Part shown: positions 2,675 to 19,086 of the stretch, piece after piece
Position numbering within the stretch: the stretch's first letter is position 1
Layout of the letters: every line of letters begins with the position of its first letter
Origin: Alphaproteobacteria bacterium
GTDB lineage: Bacteria; Pseudomonadota; Alphaproteobacteria; UBA828
Direction: 5' to 3'
DNA: 64,000 nucleotides
Assembly (NCBI GenBank): GCA_965214705.1
Contig: OZ243972.1
Location: 768,001-832,000, forward strand
Program-made: the position numbers and the translations under genes
Notes under the pieces: model-generated
Seen by the model: only the letters and a program-made list of their open reading frames with translations
Told to the model about the DNA's origin: nothing
The model's database searches: none

Positions 2675-3379
2675 TCAGTCGCCGGAATCGTCCTCGTCGG
2701 CGCCGCTCATCAGCTGGGAGAAGCGCACCGGCAGGATTTCCTCGGTCTCGAACCGACCGTCCCCGTCCTTGGTGACGAGCAACAGGCGCTGATCATCCTC
2801 CAGCCCGGCGGGGATCACCATGCGCCCGCCGGGCTTGAGCTGTTGCAAGAGTGCCGGCGGGAGCAGGTCGGGCGCAGCGGTCGCGATGATGCGATCGTAG
2901 GGCGCATGGTCGGGCCAGCCCAGGCTGCCGTCGCCGATGCGGAACTGGACGTTGCCGTAGCCCTGCTCGTCGAGCCGGCGGCGGCCGCTCTGGGCCAGCT
3001 CCTCGATCAGCTCGACCGTATAGACCTCGGCCGCGAGCTCCGCCAGCAGCGCCGCCTGATAGCCGAGCCCGGTGCCGATTTCGAGCACCCGGTGCTCCCC
3101 GCCGATCTCCAGCAGGTCGGTCATCAGCGCGACGATGAAGGGCTGCGAGATGGTCTTGCCGCAGCCGATGGGGAGCGGTGAATCGAGGTAGGCGTAGAGC
3201 GCCATCTCCACCGGCACGAATGCGTGGCGCGGCACCCGGCCGATCGCCTCCATGACATCGCCCGCGATAGCGTCGCGGCCGGTCTTGCCGCTGGCATGGT
3301 CGGCGTGAAGCGCCACCTGTTCGACCATGGTCCGGCGCAGGATCGCGAATTGGTCTTCGTTGGTATTCGCCGCCGTCAT
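2675..3379 (-). CDS. pcm: Protein-L-isoaspartate O-methyltransferase
   Basis: VPRHAFVP, TISQPFIVALM, VLEIGTGLGYQAA, GDGSLGWPDHAPYDRI; start at MTAANT (3379). Confidence 0.92.
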   Translation of the reverse strand: MTAANTNEDQFAILRRTMVEQVALHADHASGKTGRDAIAGDVMEAIGRVPRHAFVPVEMALYAYLDSPLPIGCGKTISQPFIVALMTDLLEIGGEHRVLEIGTGLGYQAALLAELAAEVYTVELIEELAQSGRRRLDEQGYGNVQFRIGDGSLGWPDHAPYDRIIATAAPDLLPPALLQQLKPGGRMVIPAGLEDDQRLLLVTKDGDGRFETEEILPVRFSQLMSGADEDDSGD

Positions 3380-3599: not shown

Positions 3600-5021
3600 A
3601 TGACCGGCTCGCTCGCGCTGCCGCTCTGGATTCTCGCGGTGGTCGGTGCACTCGCGCTCTGGGCCGCGCTTGACCGGATCCTGATGCCGAGCGCGCGCTG
3701 GTTCCTGCGCCGCCGCCTCAACCGCATGATCGAGGAGGTCAACACGCGGCTCGAGCTGCAGATCCCGGCGTTCCAGCAGACCAAGCGCCGGGTGCTGATC
3801 GACCAGCTCGCCTGCGACCCGCACGTGATGGAGGCGATCGAGGCCGAGGCCGAGGCCACCGGCACACCGCGCGAGGTGCTGAGCCGGCAGGTGGAGCGCT
3901 ACGCCCGCGAGATTGTGCCTTCCTTCAACGCCTACGCCTACTTCCGCATCGGCTATCACCTCGCGCGACGGGCGGTGGAAAGCCTCTACCGCGTGCGCCT
4001 CGGCTATTCCGACGACGAAGCGCTGGCCCGCATCGAGCCCGGCGCCAGCGTCGTCTTCGTGATGAACCACCGCAGCAACATGGACTACGTGATCGTCGCC
4101 TACATGGCGGCGCATCGCTCCGCGCTCAGCTACGCCGTGGGCGAATGGGCGCGGGTCTGGCCGCTCAGGATGCTGGTGCGCTCGCTCGGCGCCTACTTCG
4201 TGCGCCGCGGCTCGGGCAGCCGCCTCTACCGCCAGGTGCTGGCCCGCTACGTGCAGGCGGCGACGGCCGGCGGCGTGGTCCAGGCGGTCTATCCCGAGGG
4301 CGGCCTCAGCCGCGACGGCCGCCTGCGCAAGCCCAAGCTCGGGCTCATCAACTACATGGTCACGTCCTTCGACCCGGAGGGGACCCGCGATCTGGTCTTC
4401 GTCCCCGTCGGAATCAATTACGACCGGGTGTTGGAGGACCGCATGCTGGTCCGCGCACCGGGCCCCGGCGAGCCCCGGCGCAGCCGGGCGCGGGTGCTCG
4501 CCACCGCGCTCCGCTTCGCCGCGCATAACGTGAGCCTGATGATCCGGCGGCGCTGGTACCGTTTCGGCTACGCCTGCGTGAACTTCGCCGCACCGATCTC
4601 CATGCGGGACTACGCCAAGGCGAACGGGCTCGATTTCCGCACGCTGGAGCTGGAGGCCCGCCACGAGGCCGTCGAAAAACTCGGCGGCGAGCTATTGGAG
4701 GCGATCGCCGCAGCGATCCCGGTGCTTCCGGTGTCCCTGGTGGCGACGGTGTTCGTGCGTGCGGACGGGGCCCTTGATTTGCTGGAAATCAAGGGGCGCA
4801 CCCAGGCGCTGATCGACCGGCTGGAGCGCGAGGGCGCCTACGTCCACATCCCGCGCGCCGACCGCGACTACGCCGTTACCGTGGGGCTCCGCATGCTGAC
4901 GCTCCGCCACTTCGTGACCGAAGCGGACGGACTCTATCGCGCCAACGAAGGCGAGCGCGACATGCTGCGCTATTACGCCAACGCCATCGAGCACTTCCTG
5001 CCCGAGCGGACGGACGACTAA
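3600..5021 (+). CDS. Glycerol-3-phosphate acyltransferase family protein (PlsB/PlsC-like)
   Basis: HX4D motif NHRSNMD, GAYFVRR, YPEGGLSRDG; N-terminal hydrophobic segment. Confidence 0.85.
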   Translation: MTGSLALPLWILAVVGALALWAALDRILMPSARWFLRRRLNRMIEEVNTRLELQIPAFQQTKRRVLIDQLACDPHVMEAIEAEAEATGTPREVLSRQVERYAREIVPSFNAYAYFRIGYHLARRAVESLYRVRLGYSDDEALARIEPGASVVFVMNHRSNMDYVIVAYMAAHRSALSYAVGEWARVWPLRMLVRSLGAYFVRRGSGSRLYRQVLARYVQAATAGGVVQAVYPEGGLSRDGRLRKPKLGLINYMVTSFDPEGTRDLVFVPVGINYDRVLEDRMLVRAPGPGEPRRSRARVLATALRFAAHNVSLMIRRRWYRFGYACVNFAAPISMRDYAKANGLDFRTLELEARHEAVEKLGGELLEAIAAAIPVLPVSLVATVFVRADGALDLLEIKGRTQALIDRLEREGAYVHIPRADRDYAVTVGLRMLTLRHFVTEADGLYRANEGERDMLRYYANAIEHFLPERTDD

Positions 5022-11758: not shown

Positions 11759-12608
11759 ACGCTTGCAGTGTAGGCCCGCGGGGCGGATCGCCGCGGTGCA
11801 GCGGGATCGTATCGAAGCGCGGTCTCAGGCGACTTTGGCCTTGCTCGATCTCGCCGAAGGCGCGCGAGCGTATCATCTCTGGTACCTGCTCGCCTGGCAG
11901 GACATCCGTCGGCTCTACCGGCGATCGGTCCTGGGGCCCTTCTGGCTCAGCCTCAGCATGGGCGCGCTGGTGGGCGCGCTGGGAAGCCTCTACGGCATGC
12001 TGTTCGAGGTGGAGAGCGCGGACTACGTGCCCTTCCTTGCGCTCGGCTTCATCGTCTGGACGCTGATCTCCGGCGTCATCACCGACGGCTGCAAGGCCTT
12101 CATCACGGCGGAAAGCATCATCAAGCACGTGGGCTTGCCGCTCTCGATCCACGTGTATCGGCTGCTTTGGCGCCACCTCATCATCCTCTTTCACAATGCC
12201 GCGGTGTTCGTCGTTGTGGCCGCGGTCTTTGCCGTCTGGCCGGGCTGGACGGGCCTTCTCGCCCTGCCCGGCCTCCTGCTGCTCTGCTTGAACGGCATCT
12301 GGGCGGGCCTGCTGCTGGGCATCGTCTCGGCCCGATTCCGAGACGTGCCGCCGATCGTGACGAGCGTTGTGCGGATCTGCTTCTTCGTGACCCCGATCAT
12401 CTGGATGCCGGAGCTCTTGCCGGCGCGCACCCTGGTGCTGGACGCCAACCCCTTCTTCCACCTGGTGGAGGTGGTGCGGGCGCCGCTGCTGGGTCAGATG
12501 CCGGGGCTGGCTTCCTGGATCGCGGTGCTGGTCATGACGGCCGCAGGCTGGCTCGTGACCTTCGCGTTCTTCCGCCGTTATCGGCGGCGGATCGCCTACT
12601 GGGTCTGA
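11712..12608 (+). CDS. wzm: Polysaccharide ABC exporter permease Wzm (start uncertain, possibly GTG 11796)
   Basis: DIRRLYRRSVLGPFW, ARFRDV, FFVTPIIW, NPFFHLVEVVRAPLLG. Confidence 0.88.
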   Translation: MGRVLRPGSVTPQIAERLQCRPAGRIAAVQRDRIEARSQATLALLDLAEGARAYHLWYLLAWQDIRRLYRRSVLGPFWLSLSMGALVGALGSLYGMLFEVESADYVPFLALGFIVWTLISGVITDGCKAFITAESIIKHVGLPLSIHVYRLLWRHLIILFHNAAVFVVVAAVFAVWPGWTGLLALPGLLLLCLNGIWAGLLLGIVSARFRDVPPIVTSVVRICFFVTPIIWMPELLPARTLVLDANPFFHLVEVVRAPLLGQMPGLASWIAVLVMTAAGWLVTFAFFRRYRRRIAYWV

Positions 12609-12613
12609 GCGCC

Positions 12614-13360
12614 GTGGTCAGCCTCCGAATCGAAGCGGTCACAGTCGACTTTCCCGTCTACAGCGCCGGCGCGCGATCTCTGAAGAAACGCTTGCTCCAT
12701 CGCGGCACCGGCGGGCGCATCGTGCATGGTGCCGCCAATCGGATGCGAGTGCGCGCTCTTGAGGATGTGAGTCTCGCCATGAAACGAGGCGATCGGATCG
12801 GTCTTGTCGGCTCCAACGGCGCGGGCAAGACGACGCTGCTGCGCGTGCTCGCCGGCGCATACGAGCCCACGCAGGGTCGCATCGAGCGACGCGGACGGAC
12901 TGCATCGCTGCTCAACGTCTCCCTCGGTATCGATTCCGAAGCGACAGGCTACGAGAACATCATGACCCGAGGGCTCCTCCTGGGCCTTCGGCCGGATCAA
13001 GTCCGCGTGCGCGTGGATGAGATCGCGGCATTTACCGAGCTCGGTGATTACCTGGCGCTGCCGGTGCACACCTATTCGGCGGGCATGCGGCTGCGGCTCG
13101 CCTTTGCGGTGTGCACCAGTTTCGATCCCGAAATCCTGCTCATGGACGAGTGGTTGGGCATCGGCGATCGGACGTTCGTTGAAAAGGCGAAACACCGGCT
13201 CGAACAGTTCGTGGAACGTGCGGGCATATTGGTGCTCGCCTCGCAGAATACCTCCCTGCTCCAGCGGATTTGTTCCAGAGGCGTTTTGCTCGACGAGGGA
13301 AGGGTCACGTGTTTCGGATCGATCGATGAAGTGCTACGCATGTATCGGGAGATCGCCTGA
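12614..13360 (+). CDS. wzt: Polysaccharide ABC exporter ATPase Wzt, no C-terminal carbohydrate-binding domain
   Basis: GSNGAGKTT Walker A, YSAGMRLRLAF signature, LLMDE Walker B. Confidence 0.9.
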   Translation: MVSLRIEAVTVDFPVYSAGARSLKKRLLHRGTGGRIVHGAANRMRVRALEDVSLAMKRGDRIGLVGSNGAGKTTLLRVLAGAYEPTQGRIERRGRTASLLNVSLGIDSEATGYENIMTRGLLLGLRPDQVRVRVDEIAAFTELGDYLALPVHTYSAGMRLRLAFAVCTSFDPEILLMDEWLGIGDRTFVEKAKHRLEQFVERAGILVLASQNTSLLQRICSRGVLLDEGRVTCFGSIDEVLRMYREIA

Positions 13361-13497: not shown

Positions 13498-13903
13498 GTG
13501 AGTCCCCCCAGAAACGTTGAACACACCCTGGATGAGACTGGCTCCTGGTCCGCACTTCTTGCATTCGAAGCGCATCGATCCAGAGTCGGCGCCATTAGCG
13601 CTGCGCGGCCACGAGGGCGGAACGAGGGACAGGTGACGTGCGATGGCCATGAGGAGACGATCCATGCCCTTCGAGCGACAATCGAGTCTCACGAAGCCAC
13701 CATCGAGGCTCGAGAGGCGACCATAAGAGCCCGTGATGCCACCATTCACGACCTTCTAAGTTCCACCAGTTGGAAAGCCACCGCTCCACTTCGCTCCGTG
13801 TCCCGAACCTTCAGATGGTATCGGCGCGCACTCCGCAGAGCCCCCAGACACCTGTATCGGCAGGGCAAGGAGCAATTCTCACGCGTCACAAGTTCCATGC
13901 GTT
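13498..13903 (+). pseudogene. 5' fragment (coiled-coil N-terminus) of a large glycosyltransferase split by IS66
   Basis: Heptad repeats and an LLSSTSWKATAPLR motif. Joins in frame (...TSSMR|FALAES...) to the ORF after 16359 when the IS and one TSD are removed. Confidence 0.8.
13648..13752 (+). repeat. Five degenerate 21-bp (heptad) coding repeats
   Basis: HEETIHA/LRATIES/HEATIEA/REATIRA/RDATIHD. Confidence 0.7.
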
Positions 13904-14055
13904 GTAACTACCCAGGTACCCCGCCGCCAGATCTGAGTGCGTGCTGATGTTGGTCGCCGCCGGTGCCGTTTGTCCGTCGGCGCGTCGATGATCTGCCCTT
14001 GACTGTATAGGCACGCTCGCCTATGGGTTGCTCTCTCGCATGAGAGGAGCAGCCG

Positions 14056-14725
14056 GTGGGGTATTTCGGATCGAAGGCGACGACCGGTCTGAGCCAGGCG
14101 CTGATTGCGCTGATGCCCCCGCACTCTGTCTATATCGAGAGCCACTTGGGGGGGCGGGGCGCTGATGAAGCGCAAGCCTGCGGCCGTGCGCTCGATCGGG
14201 ATTGACCGCGACGAGCGGGCGCTTGAGTCCTTCGACTGTGGCTACCCGGTGGAGTTGGTGCACGGCTGCGCCCACTCCTTCCTGGCCTCGTTCCCGTTCC
14301 TGGGCCCGGAGCTGGTCTACAGCGATCCGCCCTATCTGCACGCGACCCGGCGTTCGTCGCAGCGCTACCGCTTCGAGTACGAGGAGGCCGACCACGTCGC
14401 GCTCCTCGAACTGCTCAAGGGTCTGCCCTGCCAGGTGATGGTCTCGGGCCACCCGTCTGCGCTCTATGACGAGTTGCTGGCGGGCTGGCGCCGGCTGGCG
14501 CTGCAGGTGACGACCCAGGCCCAGGTGCGGACCGAGGCGGTGTGGTTCAACTTCGCGCCCGACCGGGTGCACTGGGCGAGCTACGCGGGCCGCAACTTCA
14601 CCGACCGCCAGCGCATCAAGCGCAAGGCGGCCAACTGGGGCCGGCGCTACGAGGCCATGCCGGCGGGCGAACGCCTGGCGGTGCTGGCCGCGATCATGGC
14701 CGTCGAGGCTGACGAGGGTTTGTGA
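14056..14725 (+). pseudogene. Dam/D12-like DNA adenine methyltransferase, +1 frameshift in a G7 tract
   Basis: RBS GAGAGGAG, GTG start, MGYFGSKATTG...PPHSVYIESHLG, then G7 at 14148-14154. G6 would give HLGGGALMKRKP...IGID...YSDPPY (222 aa). Confidence 0.8.
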
Positions 14726-16263
14726 CAGTGTCGCGCTGGCACGCGGACCTCGCCGCTCACGACGAGGCTTTCGCGTGCCTGCAGGACCTTTTCACCCCAC
14801 AATCCTTCGCGATGACCGCCGTCAAAGCCATCCGGGAATGGGGCCAGGGGCTGCTTCGCCTGAGCGCGGCGCTGGTCAAGGAGAACGACGCGCTGGAGCG
14901 GGAGAACGCCCGCTTGCGCGAGCGGATCGCCGAACTTGAGCGCAGCGCCGCGCTCGACAGCACCACCAGCTCCAGGCCGCCGGCCAGCGACGGCCTGAAG
15001 AAGAAGAGCGCAGACCAGGAGAAGCGCACCCGGAGCCGGCGCGGCAAATCCGACAGGCCCAGCGGCGGTCAGCCGGGCCACAAGGGAACCACCCTGGAGC
15101 GGACCGAGAACCCGGACCACGTCGTGGATCATGATCCGTCCGCCTGTGAGGGCTGCGGCGCGCCGCTGTCGGACGCCGACCGTCACGGAGCCCCCGTCTG
15201 CCGGCAGGTCTTCGATGTGCCCGAGCCGCAGCCCCTCGAGGCCACCGAGCATCGCGGCCATCGCTGCCTCTGCGCCGCCTGCGGCACCATGACAACAGCC
15301 GCCTTCCCGAACGGCGTGAGCGCCCCGGTCCAGTACGGGCCGCGCATCACCGCGTGGGTGACCTACCTGCTGCACGCTCAGTTCATTCCGGAGAAGCGCG
15401 TCGCCGAGGTCATGAGCGATCTCTTCGCGGTCAAGATCTCAACGGCCACCATCGCCGCCATGGGCAGGCGCACCGCCCGGCGCTTCGAGGGCTTCCTCGA
15501 TCGTGTCGCAGAGATCATCCGCACCGAAGCCCCGGTCAAACACCTCGACGAGACCGGCATCCGCATCGCCGCCCGGACCCATTGGCTCCACGTGCTGTGC
15601 ACCCCGTTGCTGACCATCCTGCGCGTCGCCAGCGGGCGCGGCCATTTCGACGAGAAGCTCAACGGCATCGTCATCCATGACGACTATGCCACCTACTTCG
15701 CTCTCGAGGGCGTGCGCCACGGGGCCTGCAACGCCCATCACCTGCGTGAGCTCCAGGCCCTGATCGAGATCGAGAAGGAAGACTGGGCAACGAGCATGCA
15801 CCAGCTGCTCTCCCGTGCCAACAGAGCCGCCCGCTTCGCCCGCAAGAATGATCGCGACGTGCCCGCATCGCTGGTCGCCCGCATCTCGCGAGCCTGGGAC
15901 CGCATCCTCGAACGTGCCATCGCCGCTCACGAAGAGATGCCGCCGCTCCAGACCGGAAAGCGCGGACGACAAAAGCGCCGCATCGGTCACAACCTCGCGC
16001 TCCGGCTCCAGAAGTACAAGGAGGGCTGCCTGCGCTTCCTCACCGACCCGCGAACCCCGTTCTCGAACAATGAGGCGGAGCGCGATCTGCGAATGGGCAA
16101 GCTGCGTCAGAAAATCTCAGGCGGCTTCCGCTCGATGCAAGGTGCCTGCGACTTCGCCAACCTGCGGTCCGTCATCGCCACCGCTCGAAAACAGCGCTGG
16201 AATGTCCTCGAAACCCTGGCGCACCCCGATCCCATGCAGCTAATCCCGGTACTGCGCTTCTGA
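14722..16263 (+). CDS. IS66-family transposase (TnpC-like)
   Basis: Coiled coil, SSRPPASD, GGQPGHKG, CxxC zinc finger, HLDETG, CNAHHLREL, NNEAERDLR; GTGA overlap with the MTase stop. Confidence 0.93.
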   Translation: MTVSRWHADLAAHDEAFACLQDLFTPQSFAMTAVKAIREWGQGLLRLSAALVKENDALERENARLRERIAELERSAALDSTTSSRPPASDGLKKKSADQEKRTRSRRGKSDRPSGGQPGHKGTTLERTENPDHVVDHDPSACEGCGAPLSDADRHGAPVCRQVFDVPEPQPLEATEHRGHRCLCAACGTMTTAAFPNGVSAPVQYGPRITAWVTYLLHAQFIPEKRVAEVMSDLFAVKISTATIAAMGRRTARRFEGFLDRVAEIIRTEAPVKHLDETGIRIAARTHWLHVLCTPLLTILRVASGRGHFDEKLNGIVIHDDYATYFALEGVRHGACNAHHLRELQALIEIEKEDWATSMHQLLSRANRAARFARKNDRDVPASLVARISRAWDRILERAIAAHEEMPPLQTGKRGRQKRRIGHNLALRLQKYKEGCLRFLTDPRTPFSNNEAERDLRMGKLRQKISGGFRSMQGACDFANLRSVIATARKQRWNVLETLAHPDPMQLIPVLRF

Positions 16264-16359
16264 AATCCCCCGCCGCTCCGCTCCACGTCAGCGGCACCAG
16301 GCCAGAGGCATCAGTCCATCACGCGTGAGTGCTCGGCGGAATCAGACCTGGGCAGTTAC

Positions 16360-19086
16360 CATGCGTTTTGCTCTTGCAGAATCACCCGCAGGAGTTCACT
16401 CGAAGCGAAGCGCCTGGCCGATTGAAATCTCGAACTCTGTTTCGGAGATTATTCGCGAAAGCAGAATACAACATGTCGAAGGAACATCCCGAAATACTCA
16501 ACGACGACCTGACAGGAAAGCCCTCAAGATAACGGTCATTGCGTGGGACTTGGCACACAATCCCTTGGGACGCGCGTACCTGCTAGCGGATGCGTTGCGA
16601 CACGAATACGACGTCGAGCTTATTGGGGCGACCTTCCCCGACTTCGGCAACGACATTTGGAAGCCGCTACGCGATTGTAAGCGCGTCAAGATCAAGCACG
16701 TACCGGGCGCCTATTTCCCAGAATATTTCAGGACCATGAAAGCGATGGTCGAACACGTTGAGGGAGACGTCCTTTACGTGTCCAAGCCGAGGTTTCCGAG
16801 TTTGGGGTTGGCTGTTCTTGCCAAGATGAAAAGAAACAGACCAGTCATTCTCGACATAGATGACCATGAGCTCAGCTTCTTCGGTGCTCGAGAGCCCCTA
16901 AGTCTAGAGGAGTTGAGAGCCGAGCGAGGCATTCTGGATGTCGACGTGCCTTTTGGCGAGGCCTGGACCCGCCACTGTGAAACGCTGATTCCGCTCGTTG
17001 ACCAAATCACCGTGTCGAATGAGACGCTCAAGGGAAGGTACGGAGGCATCGTTCTGCCCCATGTCCGTGACGAGTCGGAATTCGACCCGACCATATATCC
17101 TCGCGAGGAGATTCGGCGTGAGCTCGGCTTCGTACCGGAAGACAGAGTCATTCTGTTTGCGGGAACCCCACGCAAGCACAAGGGGCTCTCGCGGCTTATC
17201 GCCGCGCTGAGAGAGCTGGATCGACCGACGTACAAGCTCCTGGTTGTCGGTTCGCCGGCTGATGGTACCGTGACCAGACTGCTGCGGCGCGTCGACCCGA
17301 GCCGCGCAACGCTGGTTCCGGACGTACCGTACTCGGATCTACCCGGCTATCTTTGCGCCGCCGACCTCGTTCCTCTGCTTCAAGACGAGGCTGAACCTAC
17401 GTCGGCATTTCAAATGCCCGCCAAATTTACCGATGCACTCGCCATGGGCATCCCCATCGTCGCGAGCAATGTCCCGCCCTTGGTCGATGCCGCGAACGAC
17501 GGCCTTGTGGAATTGCTGGGAAACGCAACGCCGGCGCAAAAGATCAACGAAATCTTCTCCAACTACGCAATTCATAAGAAGCGAGCCACTGAAAACCGTG
17601 AGAATTTTCTCGGCAAATTCAGCTACGCAAGCAATTTGCCTAAAATAAAGCAAGTGGTGGAACGGCATGCCGACCACCCTAAGCCCGTCCCGCATGCCTT
17701 CCACGATCTCGTCGAGTATCAGGAGAGTATCTATTCCCAGACGGGAAAGCTGCGCATAACCGCTCCCAAGGTCATCATACCAAGCAAAGTCATAACAGCT
17801 CCATCCGTTGCTACCGCAGCATTGGCGCAGCGCAAGACTGAGAGGGCGCGGCTGCGCGCGCAGCGATCGTACGTCGACGACAAATTGGATGTGGTCTTTT
17901 TTTGGAAGCAAAACGACAGCGGGATTTACGGCAGGCGTCAGGACATGTTCGTCAAGTACCTGGCGCGCGATCCAAGGGTCAACCGCATCTTCCACTTCGA
18001 CGCTCCGATGAATTTCTTTCGCTCTGTGGGCCTGGCGGCCAGAGCGGATTCCATGGGGCGGTGCAGCCATTCGCGACTGGTTGGACGCCAGACGCTGAAC
18101 AGGAGGCTCGGACTCGCCAACAGGGGTAAGGTCAGATTCGACACCTTCATCCACGTCTCAAACCGTCGCGGCCCGAGGGTGCTCAAGCATATTCTTCCGG
18201 GGAAAGACGACTATCTCGAATTCCTAAGCCGCGTCATCAGACGTCATGAGATCGGGCAGCGGAGGACCGTTCTCTGGGCGTGCCCCGTCAACTTTCATTT
18301 CTTGAACATAGAGGATCATTTGCAGGCAGACCTCGTGGTCGCCGATGTCATCGACGACGAGCGAAAATGGCCGGTGAGTGAGGCATATAGAGATAAGCTG
18401 AGTCGCAATTATGAAGAGGTATTGGGGATTAGCGATCTCGTCATAACAAACTGTGAGAGTGTTTCCCAGAGCATGAGCGCCCTATCCGACAGCATCCATC
18501 TGCTGCCGAATGCCGTGGAACCCCTGGAAGAGGAGGCGAGGCACTGGCCTAAGCCGCGCGACCTCAAGCGTCTCTCGGGGCCGGTGATCGGATACGTCGG
18601 CAACTTGGATATCGCGCGCATAGACCTGGATCTGTTGAGGAGCGTGGTGAGTAAACGCCCTGGCTGGAATTTCGTCTTTATCGGCTCCATGCATAAGGGT
18701 GATGAGATCAGAGAGTTGGAAATATACGGCAATGTTCATTTCTTGGGAGTTCGAGTCTACGAGCAAGCGCTGCGCTATATCCGGCATTTCGATGTGGCCA
18801 TTATACCGCATTTAGATAACGAACTGACGAGAAGCATGAATCCCCTTAAGTTGTACGTTTATTTTTCTCTGCTGGTGCCTGTTGTGTCGACAGAGATACA
18901 GAATATCGGGGATTTCAGCGAGTTCGTTCGCCGCAAGAGTTCGTGCGCACAATCGACGAATGTCTCTGCAACGATCCACTAGAAAATGAACTGCCGCGTC
19001 TTCGAGAGTTACTAAAGGAGAATTCATGGCCTGAGCGCGTGAAGTACGTGCTTGAGTTGATCGAGCGGAAATTCGCAGTGTGCTAG
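16360..19086 (+). pseudogene. 3' part of a two-domain GT4-like glycosyltransferase; also frameshifted near 18930
   Basis: Two GT-B modules (FAGTPRKHKG...PAKFTDALAMG; GYVGNL...NPLKLYVY). The natural C-terminus (SPQEFVRTIDEC...ENSWPERV...VC*) continues in another frame to TAG 19086. Confidence 0.8.

Follow-up and report, generated by a model that had tools for sequence, protein, structure and literature searches.

Results

The window, a 64,000-nt stretch of an alphaproteobacterial genome, contains a 2456-bp IS66-family element (13904-16359). Only two open reading frames (ORFs) lie within it, a Dam-like gene followed by a transposase gene, together with the following features (window positions):

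13896-13903: target-site duplication CATGCGTT, left copy, 8 bp
13904-13928, + strand: left terminal inverted repeat (IRL), starting GTAACTACCCAGGT; same end in 12/12 copies and in the 82% subfamily
13999-14027, + strand: promoter-like TTGACT (13999-14004), 17 nt, TATGGG (14022-14027); weak -10
14007-14024: predicted palindromic operator ATAG-N10-CTAT, 18 bp, filling the 17-nt spacer and overlapping the -10
14028-14052, + strand: predicted 5'-leader hairpin (fold and covariation), its 3' arm over the GGAG ribosome-binding site
14056-14725, + strand: Upf31-family Dam-fold gene ("methyltransferase"), frameshifted in the window copy; 222 aa from intact paralogues
14148-14154, + strand: G7 run at which the frame shifts, inside the codons for motif I; G6 in intact paralogues
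14324-14335, + strand: DPPY (motif IV) codons; D90, P91 and P92 invariant in 46 sequences
14722-14725, + strand: GTGA, transposase start codon overlapping the stop codon of the upstream gene
14722-16263, + strand: IS66-family DDE transposase, 513 aa; DUF6444, weak zf-IS66 and DDE_Tnp_IS66
16335-16359, - strand: right terminal inverted repeat (IRR), ending ACCTGGGCAGTTAC at 16359
16360-16367: target-site duplication CATGCGTT, right copy, 8 bp

An earlier note, made from the sequence, had described an IS66 element with a Dam-like gene, placed before the transposase and co-expressed with it, and this reading holds. Members of the IS66 family have terminal inverted repeats starting with GTAA and generate an 8-bp target duplication (ISfinder); both features are present here. 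The ends are of the GTAACT... type, with 13/14 terminal bases identical between IRL and IRR, and the genome carries 12 full copies at 97-100% identity, all of them (12/12) flanked by their own perfect 8-bp duplication, different at each site, in keeping with the repeats and duplication read in that note. The upstream gene is intact in 7/12 full copies. Two young sublineages can be distinguished, one of five frameshifted copies (0-1 substitutions apart) and one of six intact copies (0-1 apart); the frameshifted lineage is present at five sites and has transposed at least four times. The element is a genuine insertion sequence, active and present in multiple copies, and its upstream protein is dispensable in cis, because the frameshifted lineage has kept moving.

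The transposase scores 135.3 bits against DDE_Tnp_IS66 (PF03050; cut-off 23.1) and 283.3 bits against NF033517 (cut-off 180). Canonical IS66 elements (tnpA, tnpB, tnpC) share with it the DDE transposase family (Pfam, NCBIfam) and the presence of accessory gene(s) upstream, but they have tnpA and tnpB before tnpC, whereas TnpA and TnpB are missing here: TnpB_IS66 has 52 matches elsewhere in the genome and none within the element, and long ORFs 3' of three of the TnpB genes (putative TnpC) gave no BLASTP match to the transposase at E 1e-3. Both in this genome and on plasmids, the elements most closely related to it are IS66 elements with a single gene, which we take to be the ISBst12 group of ISfinder. 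In that group the transposase is the sole gene and the length stays below about 1.9 kb, whereas the element described here has two genes and 2456 bp. The single-gene elements of this genome (1666-1682 bp) have nearly identical ends and transposases that are 56-59% identical, and share DDE_Tnp_IS66 with DUF6444, GTAACT... ends and the 8-bp duplication; what sets our element apart is a further gene of 222 aa ahead of the transposase, together with a promoter, predicted operator and leader that belong to it. Single-gene elements named in plasmid records include ISGst1 and ISGka4, and plasmid relatives are annotated as lone IS66 transposases. In a quick tree, which excludes the putative canonical TnpC ORFs (outgroup) and the partial sequence S_L072x, the transposase groups with the single-gene elements, making the element a derivative of that subgroup and not a plain member. 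The upstream gene is an addition to the 5' leader of a single-gene IS66 backbone. With such a backbone nothing was replaced in the tnpA/tnpB slot, and the earlier placement of the gene in that accessory slot has to be given up.

In the window copy, the upstream gene is split into ORFs of 49 aa (14056-14205) and 186 aa (14165-14725) by a single additional G within the run at 14148-14154. Metatranscriptome contigs of relatives have one G fewer at this run, the assembly looks long-read, and the frameshift may be a homopolymer miscall; one relative (L040) likewise combines a long G run with a premature stop, possibly through long-read homopolymer error. Programmed phase variation at this site was considered and rejected, as the run varies from G2 to G6 among subfamilies and is mostly G3-G5 in the second clade. 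The Dam-like motifs named in the earlier note are largely as described: YFGSK (codons at 14062-14076) and DPPY are present, while motif I, given as HLGGG, reads HLGGG in the intact paralogue and HLGGR in the window copy. G32 is invariant along with the DPPY residues D90, P91 and P92 in 46 sequences, and DPPY is retained in 117/118 close and 108/113 distant full-length relatives. Values of dN/dS range from 0.13 to 0.33 for the upstream gene and from 0.15 to 0.40 for the transposase, showing that both genes are under purifying selection.

The designation as Dam-like can be kept in part. Motif I and DPPY are there, and the best PDB relatives in both profile and fold comparisons are Dam enzymes (DpnM, 1.6e-9; E. 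coli Dam, 5.7e-6; Foldseek TM about 0.5), but the protein falls below the Dam cut-offs of Pfam (PF02086, 14.6 vs 22) and TIGRFAM (TIGR00571, 26 vs 114.85) and has no Dam DNA-binding domain. Its residues 22-65 align to DpnM 35-77 and residues 81-159 to DpnM 183-266, and the roughly 105 residues missing correspond to the DNA-binding (target-recognition) domain. E. coli Dam, DpnM and T4 Dam (D12 class) thus have the same Rossmann core, motif I and DPPY, but where they carry a helical DNA-binding domain with a recognition hairpin, the protein encoded here has a C-terminal two-helix domain: its predicted structure is a compact core followed by two helices (181-221). The homodimer prediction scored 0.30, against a mark of 0.42, and so speaks neither for nor against a dimer.

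The sole studied homologue is Upf31 (upf31.0) of the IncP-1 beta plasmid pBP136, which is 43% identical over 222 aligned positions (full length; E 7e-61) and likewise keeps HLGGG and DPPY. According to the available part of the preprint describing it, Upf31 represses its own promoter upf31p (from 4.76 to 0.09 XylE units), with inverted CAGCATCG repeats as its likely operator, has a helical C-terminal dimerization domain by prediction, is proposed to interact with KorB, and yields neither GATC methylation nor an SMRT signal in methylase-free E. coli (bioRxiv 10.1101/2024.02.05.579024). The C-terminal helices reported there also occur in the predicted model of our protein. No word beginning with "transpos" occurs in the available text of the preprint, and the upf31 gene stands alone on its plasmid, whereas its counterpart here is coupled to a transposase.

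The earlier note had asked whether the gene pair recurs at other sites, and it does so well beyond the 12 copies of this genome. Among related loci drawn from 14 other assemblies, 80/80 show a same-strand match to an IS66 transposase 3' of the upstream gene, adjoining it in 79/80 (the exception, L041, has it 2.5 kb off). Junctions between the two genes are GTGA overlaps or gaps of 5-37 nt on the same strand, with GTGA in 11/13 representative elements. In a metagenome set with upstream proteins 65-72% identical to that of the window element, 53/66 loci with at least 300 nt of downstream sequence have an IS66 transposase match (22-45% identity); 8/9 sampled downstream ORFs are DDE_Tnp_IS66, and GTAACTACTC... 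ends enclose both genes in 9/9 loci inspected. Metagenomes also contain the pair in a second IS66 lineage that is deeply diverged. The quick tree ties the gene to at least two transposase lineages with single-gene relatives between them, and the same upstream protein occurs next to transposases that share about 30% identity, next to a transposase of a different family, and by itself. Multiple copies and a pair recurring at many sites and genomes rule out a one-off capture of a methyltransferase-like gene.

The distribution of the element is patchy. A phylum sample of 400 other genomes held no close homologue and matches at 42-45% in two of them; the elements abound in metagenomes from marine hosts and from sediment and in several phylum-level bins, and the arrangement is widespread in environmental bacteria. 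In PLSDB, 198 plasmids carry homologues, all below 60% identity, and 134/198 of these plasmids are conjugative; an IS66 element was found beside the gene in 0/9 plasmids inspected. No IS66 element with such a gene was described in the literature searched; ISfinder and TnPedia lay outside the scope of that search, and prior registration is possible.

The gene could be plain cargo, a selfish passenger with an autoregulated promoter and no role in transposition. The frameshifted lineage that reached five sites and the genes found alone on plasmids are compatible with this, and insertion sequences that carry passenger genes form a recognized class (PMC3129680). Yet the gene always sits between the sole promoter and the transposase, on the same strand, with the tight junctions described above; at least two transposase lineages bear it, with single-gene relatives between them in the quick tree; and any repressor of this promoter necessarily represses the transposase as well. 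We regard the cargo explanation as highly improbable.

The promoter proposed in the earlier note, TTGACT-17 nt-TATGGG, is present as written, but a strict consensus scan of 13850-16450 returned 0 sites because TATGGG fails the -10 rule of the scanner; the promoter call therefore rests on relatives that keep an identical layout, with the consensus CTTGACA-N-CATAG-N10-CTATGCT. Strict matches to the predicted operator, always equally far from the start codon, occur in 73/80 and 63/76 related IS loci, against 0/1600 and 1/1520 in shuffle controls (1 in 3120 in total). Its half-sites are constant, and the intervening N10 is variable (57 distinct sequences). ATAG-N10-CTAT has a single exact match in the window and 25 in the genome, 16 of them within copies of this IS; the nine sites outside, vs about 18 expected by composition, show no enrichment. 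The motif was not found in the left ends of single-gene IS66 relatives. On plasmids where the gene lacks an adjoining transposase, the motif still accompanies it: among the nine plasmid homologues inspected, 3/9 have two to three operator copies, 4/9 have the variant ATCG-N10-CGAT directly after TTGACA, and 2/9 are without operator. The upf31 promoter has the same design as that of the IS element, TTGACA being followed directly by an inverted repeat whose arms are separated by N10, but with half-sites of the ATCG/CGAT type instead of ATAG/CTAT. In roughly half of the 12 subfamilies inspected a GATC precedes the -35 by 8-10 nt, and in only two is there one close to the element end, which is too patchy for a conserved regulatory site.

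Downstream of the promoter, the leader hairpin folds at -14.8 kcal/mol, which is not significant alone (z -0.84), but its stem is 93.3% paired over 33 leaders vs 79.8% in shuffles (0/500), with compensatory changes in 4/5 pairs. All RNA libraries examined (4/4) yielded metatranscriptome contigs with a likeness of at least 85%, although DNA carry-over is possible; one contig (X18 record 11; 14622-14854) spans the gene junction, although contigs cannot prove a single transcript.

Two enzymatic readings can be weighed against these data. The first, put forward in the earlier note, is a working DNA adenine methyltransferase that broadly modifies host or vehicle DNA, protecting the element and its carrier from restriction or changing the host methylome. 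The conserved motif I and DPPY, the purifying selection on the gene, the Dam enzymes as best structural relatives and the conjugative nature of most homologue-bearing plasmids are in line with this. However, the DNA-binding domain of Dam is absent, the scores lie under the Pfam and TIGR00571 cut-offs, Upf31 is negative for GATC methylation and SMRT signal in the available preprint text, GATC is found near the promoter in only about half of the subfamilies, and the operator motif is rarer outside the IS than expected. Broad methylation is an unlikely explanation, and restriction protection or methylome change is not the reading we favor, given the low Dam scores, the missing domain and the reported Upf31 result.

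In the second, the protein would methylate only the adenines of its own operator. In IS10 and Tn5, Dam keeps transposase expression low by methylating promoter adenines; here the promoter, and through it transposition, would respond to the hemimethylated state that follows replication, making this a similar switch with an on-board enzyme. The catalytic motifs are kept even though the homologue behaves as a repressor in the part of the preprint available, the ATAG/CTAT half-sites hold symmetric adenines, and these half-sites co-vary with the protein lineage (ATCG/CGAT in the Upf31 branch); so long a target would presumably also have gone unnoticed in motif discovery on a test strain in which such sites were few or absent. 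On the other side, no family member has direct methylation evidence, binding and catalysis would both be needed at one site, and Upf31 repression is accounted for without methylation in that text. We think this second reading improbable too; methylation of some kind by the upstream protein is possible.

Discussion

Our data suggest that the element is probably an autorepressed operon in which an Upf31-like protein throttles the transposase in trans. A single left-end promoter would drive the 222-aa Upf31-family Dam-fold protein, to which the transposase would be translationally coupled via GTGA, and binding of this protein to the CATAG-N10-CTATG operator would turn the promoter off. The cell's total Upf31-like protein would in that case set the upper limit of transposase output and act as a trans-acting, copy-number-dependent brake on all copies, with the leader hairpin over the ribosome-binding site as a second damper. 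The upstream protein most likely binds the operator and represses, since Upf31 is reported to repress its own promoter, and we infer that repression limits transposition; alternatively, a host factor might bind the operator, or the operator might be a site of methylation. Several points count against the autorepressor model: a pure repressor would not need the conserved DPPY, the -10 of the window copy is weak and escapes the strict promoter scan, and it is difficult to tell cargo from a brake whose loss has no consequence. Self-regulation of transposition is the best-supported of the roles suggested in the earlier note.

In IS1 and IS911, small upstream-encoded products (InsA and OrfA, respectively) limit transposase expression in trans. 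The proposed regulator resembles these and the Dam control of IS10/Tn5 in outline, but differs from all of them in having a Dam methyltransferase fold, in acting at its own promoter and operator instead of a terminal repeat, and in being common to conjugative plasmids. To our knowledge, self-control of IS copy number is known for few families only, and for none in the single-gene IS66 branch.

A more speculative extension is that the gene, promoter, operator and hairpin form a portable cassette, captured repeatedly by unrelated mobile elements, whose retained pocket would flip or methylate its own operator adenines and thereby report copy number and replication state to the genes downstream. 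We consider this rather unlikely. Such a cassette would have been taken up by two or more deep IS66 lineages, by an IS1634-family element and by conjugative plasmids.

A whole IS66 lineage has its transposase behind a gene from the family of a reported plasmid autorepressor. The Upf31 family, with its methyltransferase fold and conserved catalytic residues and no methylation found, thereby gains a second, independent genomic context, and the conserved operator is a concrete candidate substrate for it. The "DNA adenine methylase" labels carried by thousands of such 220-aa proteins may be wrong or incomplete. The portable cassette, if true, would be a self-contained epigenetic governor for transposons.

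A two-gene IS66 element and its insertion site

As the earlier note had described, two genes lie between the terminal inverted repeats of the window copy, joined by a GTGA overlap and enclosed by an 8-bp target duplication, and the promoter-like sequence that it placed in front of them is found exactly there. The ends were read from the sequence.

12167-13360: ABC-transporter ATPase gene, just upstream of the interrupted gene
13498-13903 and 16368-18982: interrupted gene, split by the IS
13896-13903 and 16360-16367: direct repeat CATGCGTT, flanking both ends
13904: start of the left end, GTAACTACCCAGGT
13999-14027: promoter-like TTGACT, 17 nt, TATGGG
14007-14024: putative operator ATAG-N10-CTAT, the sole exact match in the 64-kb window
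14056-14205 and 14165-14725: upstream gene, broken in this copy
14722-14725: GTGA, stop codon of the upstream gene overlapping the transposase GTG start
14722-16263: IS66-family DDE transposase gene, the downstream of the two
16359: finish of the right end, ACCTGGGCAGTTAC, a near-complement of the left end

The transposase scores far above the cut-offs of both PF03050 (135 bits) and NF033517 (283 bits), and it matches DUF6444 as well as, weakly, zf-IS66. One additional G in the run at 14148-14154 (G7 vs G6 in an alignment of all genomic copies), within the codons of the SAM-binding motif, breaks the upstream gene. Once the IS and one copy of the duplication are taken out, an open frame of 1006 codons crosses the insertion site; the part beyond the site encodes a group 1 glycosyltransferase (PF13692, PF00534), which together with the adjoining ATPase gene makes the site look like a polysaccharide locus.

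The gene pair is a mobile unit

The source genome (7.92 Mb, 3 contigs, 67% G+C) holds 12 full-length copies at 97-100% identity, all with identical ends and each with its own perfect 8-bp duplication, so the element is a mobile unit and not a chance neighborhood. A subfamily at 82% identity, present in two copies, shares its ends, its GTGA junction and the layout of its promoter; one further copy is truncated and one is split by another IS, bringing the two-gene element to 16 copies or fragments. In the split copy (L095, G000:C1:2066576-2071152), a 2.1-kb IS interrupts the Dam-fold gene. The genome contains at least 23 near-identical matches to this IS, which codes for a protein of ~608 aa; two of its ORFs scanned against Pfam gave no match.

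The transposase ORF is open in all 12 full copies (513-524 aa), and the 222-aa upstream ORF is intact in seven. The other five, among them the window copy, all have the G7 frameshift and are 0-1 substitutions apart, as are six of the intact copies, the seventh being older; the frameshifted and intact sublineages are thus equally young. Five near-identical frameshifted copies imply that this form has transposed at least four times and that the upstream protein is dispensable in cis; intact copies could be supplying it in trans. Broken copies also seem common in public data, since many family representatives (e.g., P0137, P0140, P0144 and P0151) start precisely at position 37 of the intact protein (MKRKP...), the gene-caller output expected for a frameshifted N-terminal part like that of the window copy. 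In the relative L040 (~4001-4672, in a Binatia-labeled assembly), the G run in the motif I codons is much longer and there is a premature stop, reflecting either a separate slippage event or a homopolymer error in long reads.

The earlier note had proposed searching for the pair at other sites, and it recurs well beyond these 12 copies. Relatives of the intact upstream protein form 3490 clusters at E 1e-3 in a 90%-clustered collection, the best 120 of which have ~220 aa and an identity of 70% or more; a 50%-clustered library contains 5976 matching representatives at E 1e-3, of which 488 also pass 1e-30. Among species-representative genomes, the best 80 loci come from 14 assemblies labeled Alphaproteobacteria, Dehalococcoidia, Binatia and Tectimicrobiota, which are MAG labels open to binning errors. 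An IS66 transposase match lies downstream on the same strand in 80/80, adjacent in 79 and 2.5 kb off in the remaining one (L041), and the copy number is at least ten in many of these assemblies. Of 13 representative elements, 11 have the GTGA junction, the upstream gene being broken in both exceptions. The element is nonetheless patchy, as none of 400 genomes sampled from the same phylum has a close homolog.

A metagenome scan seeded with a 70%-identical relative gave 80 further loci, with upstream proteins 65-72% identical to that of the window element. Where at least 300 nt of downstream sequence was available, 53/66 had an IS66 transposase match, just 22-45% identical to the window element's transposase. 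The downstream ORF is typically 483 aa long and starts 5-37 nt past the upstream stop codon, and eight of nine sampled were DDE_Tnp_IS66. All nine loci inspected have GTAACTACTC... ends around both genes, three of them with an 8-bp duplication. Coral- and sponge-labeled metatranscriptome libraries (X15, X18, X19 and X20) contain relatives of the element at a likeness of at least 85%; one contig spans the two-gene junction (14622-14854), which does not prove transcription.

The upstream protein resembles Dam and Upf31

The earlier reading of a Dam-like methyltransferase holds in part: motif I and DPPY are kept, and the best solved relatives recovered with a profile built from 46 relatives are DpnM (1.6e-9) and E. 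coli Dam (5.7e-6), but the protein falls below the Dam cut-offs (PF02086, 14.6 vs 22; TIGR00571, 26 vs 114.85). The alignment to DpnM and Dam is limited to the motif I and DPPY segments, and the ~105 residues between them that form the DNA-binding domain of Dam are missing. In an AlphaFold model (pLDDT 91.6), a compact Rossmann core precedes two C-terminal helices (181-200 and 203-221). The top Foldseek matches are Mcbe1, Dam and DpnM (TM ~0.5), beside generic small methyltransferases. Residues G32, D90, P91 and P92 are invariant among the 46 relatives, and DPPY is present in 117/118 close and 108/113 distant full-length relatives. The upstream gene is at least as constrained as the transposase (dN/dS 0.13-0.33 vs 0.15-0.40).

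Plasmid homologs, all below 60% identity, occur in 198 records, of which 134 are conjugative plasmids, and the gene stands alone in all nine records inspected. They include upf31.0 of IncP-1 beta plasmids; Upf31 of pBP136 is 43% identical, end to end, to the intact upstream protein. In a preprint, Upf31 is reported as showing no GATC methylation, giving no SMRT signal in methylase-free E. coli, repressing its own promoter from 4.76 to 0.09 XylE units, likely through an operator of inverted CAGCATCG repeats, and having a predicted C-terminal dimerization domain (bioRxiv 10.1101/2024.02.05.579024). No word beginning with "transpos" occurs in its text. On the Sphingobium plasmid NZ_CP084410.1 (L090, 3873-6149), an IS1380-family (ISSp1-like) transposase lies on the same strand as a 49%-identical homolog, 200 nt downstream of it; H3 and H4 have search scores like that of L090.

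A putative operator palindrome accompanies the Dam-fold gene

We had spotted a palindrome in the IS promoter, between its -35 and -10, before reading the Upf31 preprint. A strict ATAG-N10-CTAT at constant distance to the start codon occurs in 73/80 genome loci and 63/76 metagenome loci, as compared with 0/1600 and 1/1520 shuffled upstream regions, respectively. The half-sites are constant, whereas the ten bases between them are free to differ, with 57 versions across the metagenome set. Given the consensus CTTGACA-N-CATAG-N10-CTATGCT, the palindrome occupies the 17-nt spacer and overlaps the -10, which is weak in the window copy, as a strict consensus scan finds nothing promoter-like in the element's region. 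Across the genome, 16 of 25 exact matches fall within copies of the element, and the nine outside are fewer than the ~18 expected by base composition.

Unlike the window element, single-gene IS66 relatives lack the palindrome. Plasmid homologs carry operators without a transposase: ATAG-N10-CTAT is present two or three times in three of nine; in four, of the Upf31 branch, ATCG-N10-CGAT comes directly after TTGACA; and two have neither type. The Dam-fold gene being the sole gene common to all operator contexts, its product is the most parsimonious choice of operator-binding protein, in agreement with the autorepression reported for Upf31. A pure repressor leaves the conserved catalytic motifs unexplained, and we therefore keep two further readings that would account for them: methylation restricted to the operator, which we think unlikely, and broad methylation by the same protein, which we hold to be just as improbable.

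A single-gene backbone with an added cassette

Other IS66-type elements of the genome have one gene, 1666-1682 bp, 8-bp duplications and ends GTAACTGCCCAGGT.../...ACCTGGGCAGTTAC; their transposases are 56-59% identical to that of the window element. They number ~11 copies in three groups, in a genome very rich in IS66-type elements (52 TnpB_IS66 matches, canonical IS66). Plasmid relatives of the transposase (E 1e-30) are lone "IS66 family" or "IS66-like ISGst1/ISGka4" transposases from Bacillus, Geobacillus, Deinococcus and cyanobacteria. In a quick maximum-likelihood transposase tree of 34 rows, with three "canonical" ORFs of unverified identity and a partial row omitted, the window element's clade has support 100, as has a second gene-carrying clade (18 of its 19 rows, with one long-branch outlier). 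Single-gene elements are placed between the two, ISGst1 being sister to the second (support 99). The "accessory-gene slot" of the earlier note is thus imprecise: the element is a single-gene IS66 backbone plus one added gene. Between the two clades, upstream proteins are ~70% identical vs ~30% for transposases, so the cassette either moved between transposase lineages or was lost several times.

Among the 13 metagenome loci without an IS66 match, two have an IS1634-family transposase, and a further pair is near-identical to one of them. At L123, 3 kb of downstream sequence contains no transposase, and the remaining loci have little sequence on that side. In L099 (1-3240; also L100, L101 and L126), a 67-68% identical Dam-fold gene lies upstream of the IS1634-family transposase (NF033559, ~248 bits) and keeps its promoter, operator and a GTAACTAC remnant; a 16-nt inverted repeat (16-31 / 3177-3192) surrounds both genes along with a 95-aa ORF. 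A second IS family appears to have acquired the cassette.

A candidate copy-number brake

We infer operator binding, repression and an effect on transposition. On the most probable reading, a single promoter would give a single message, from which the Dam-fold protein would be translated first and the transposase by coupling to it; the Dam-fold protein would then return to the operator and close the promoter. Because this protein would diffuse, each copy would be repressed by the sum of all copies, providing a copy-number brake. A leader hairpin, conserved with compensatory changes and with its 3' arm over the ribosome-binding site, should lower translation further: it is 93.3% paired vs 79.8% in shuffles (0/500), with slid controls at only 25-46%, and the leader fold of the window copy by itself is not significant.

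ISs with upstream repressors, Dam-regulated ISs and ISs with passenger genes are known. In the literature searched, we found no IS66 lineage with its transposase behind an Upf31-type Dam-fold autoregulatory cassette.
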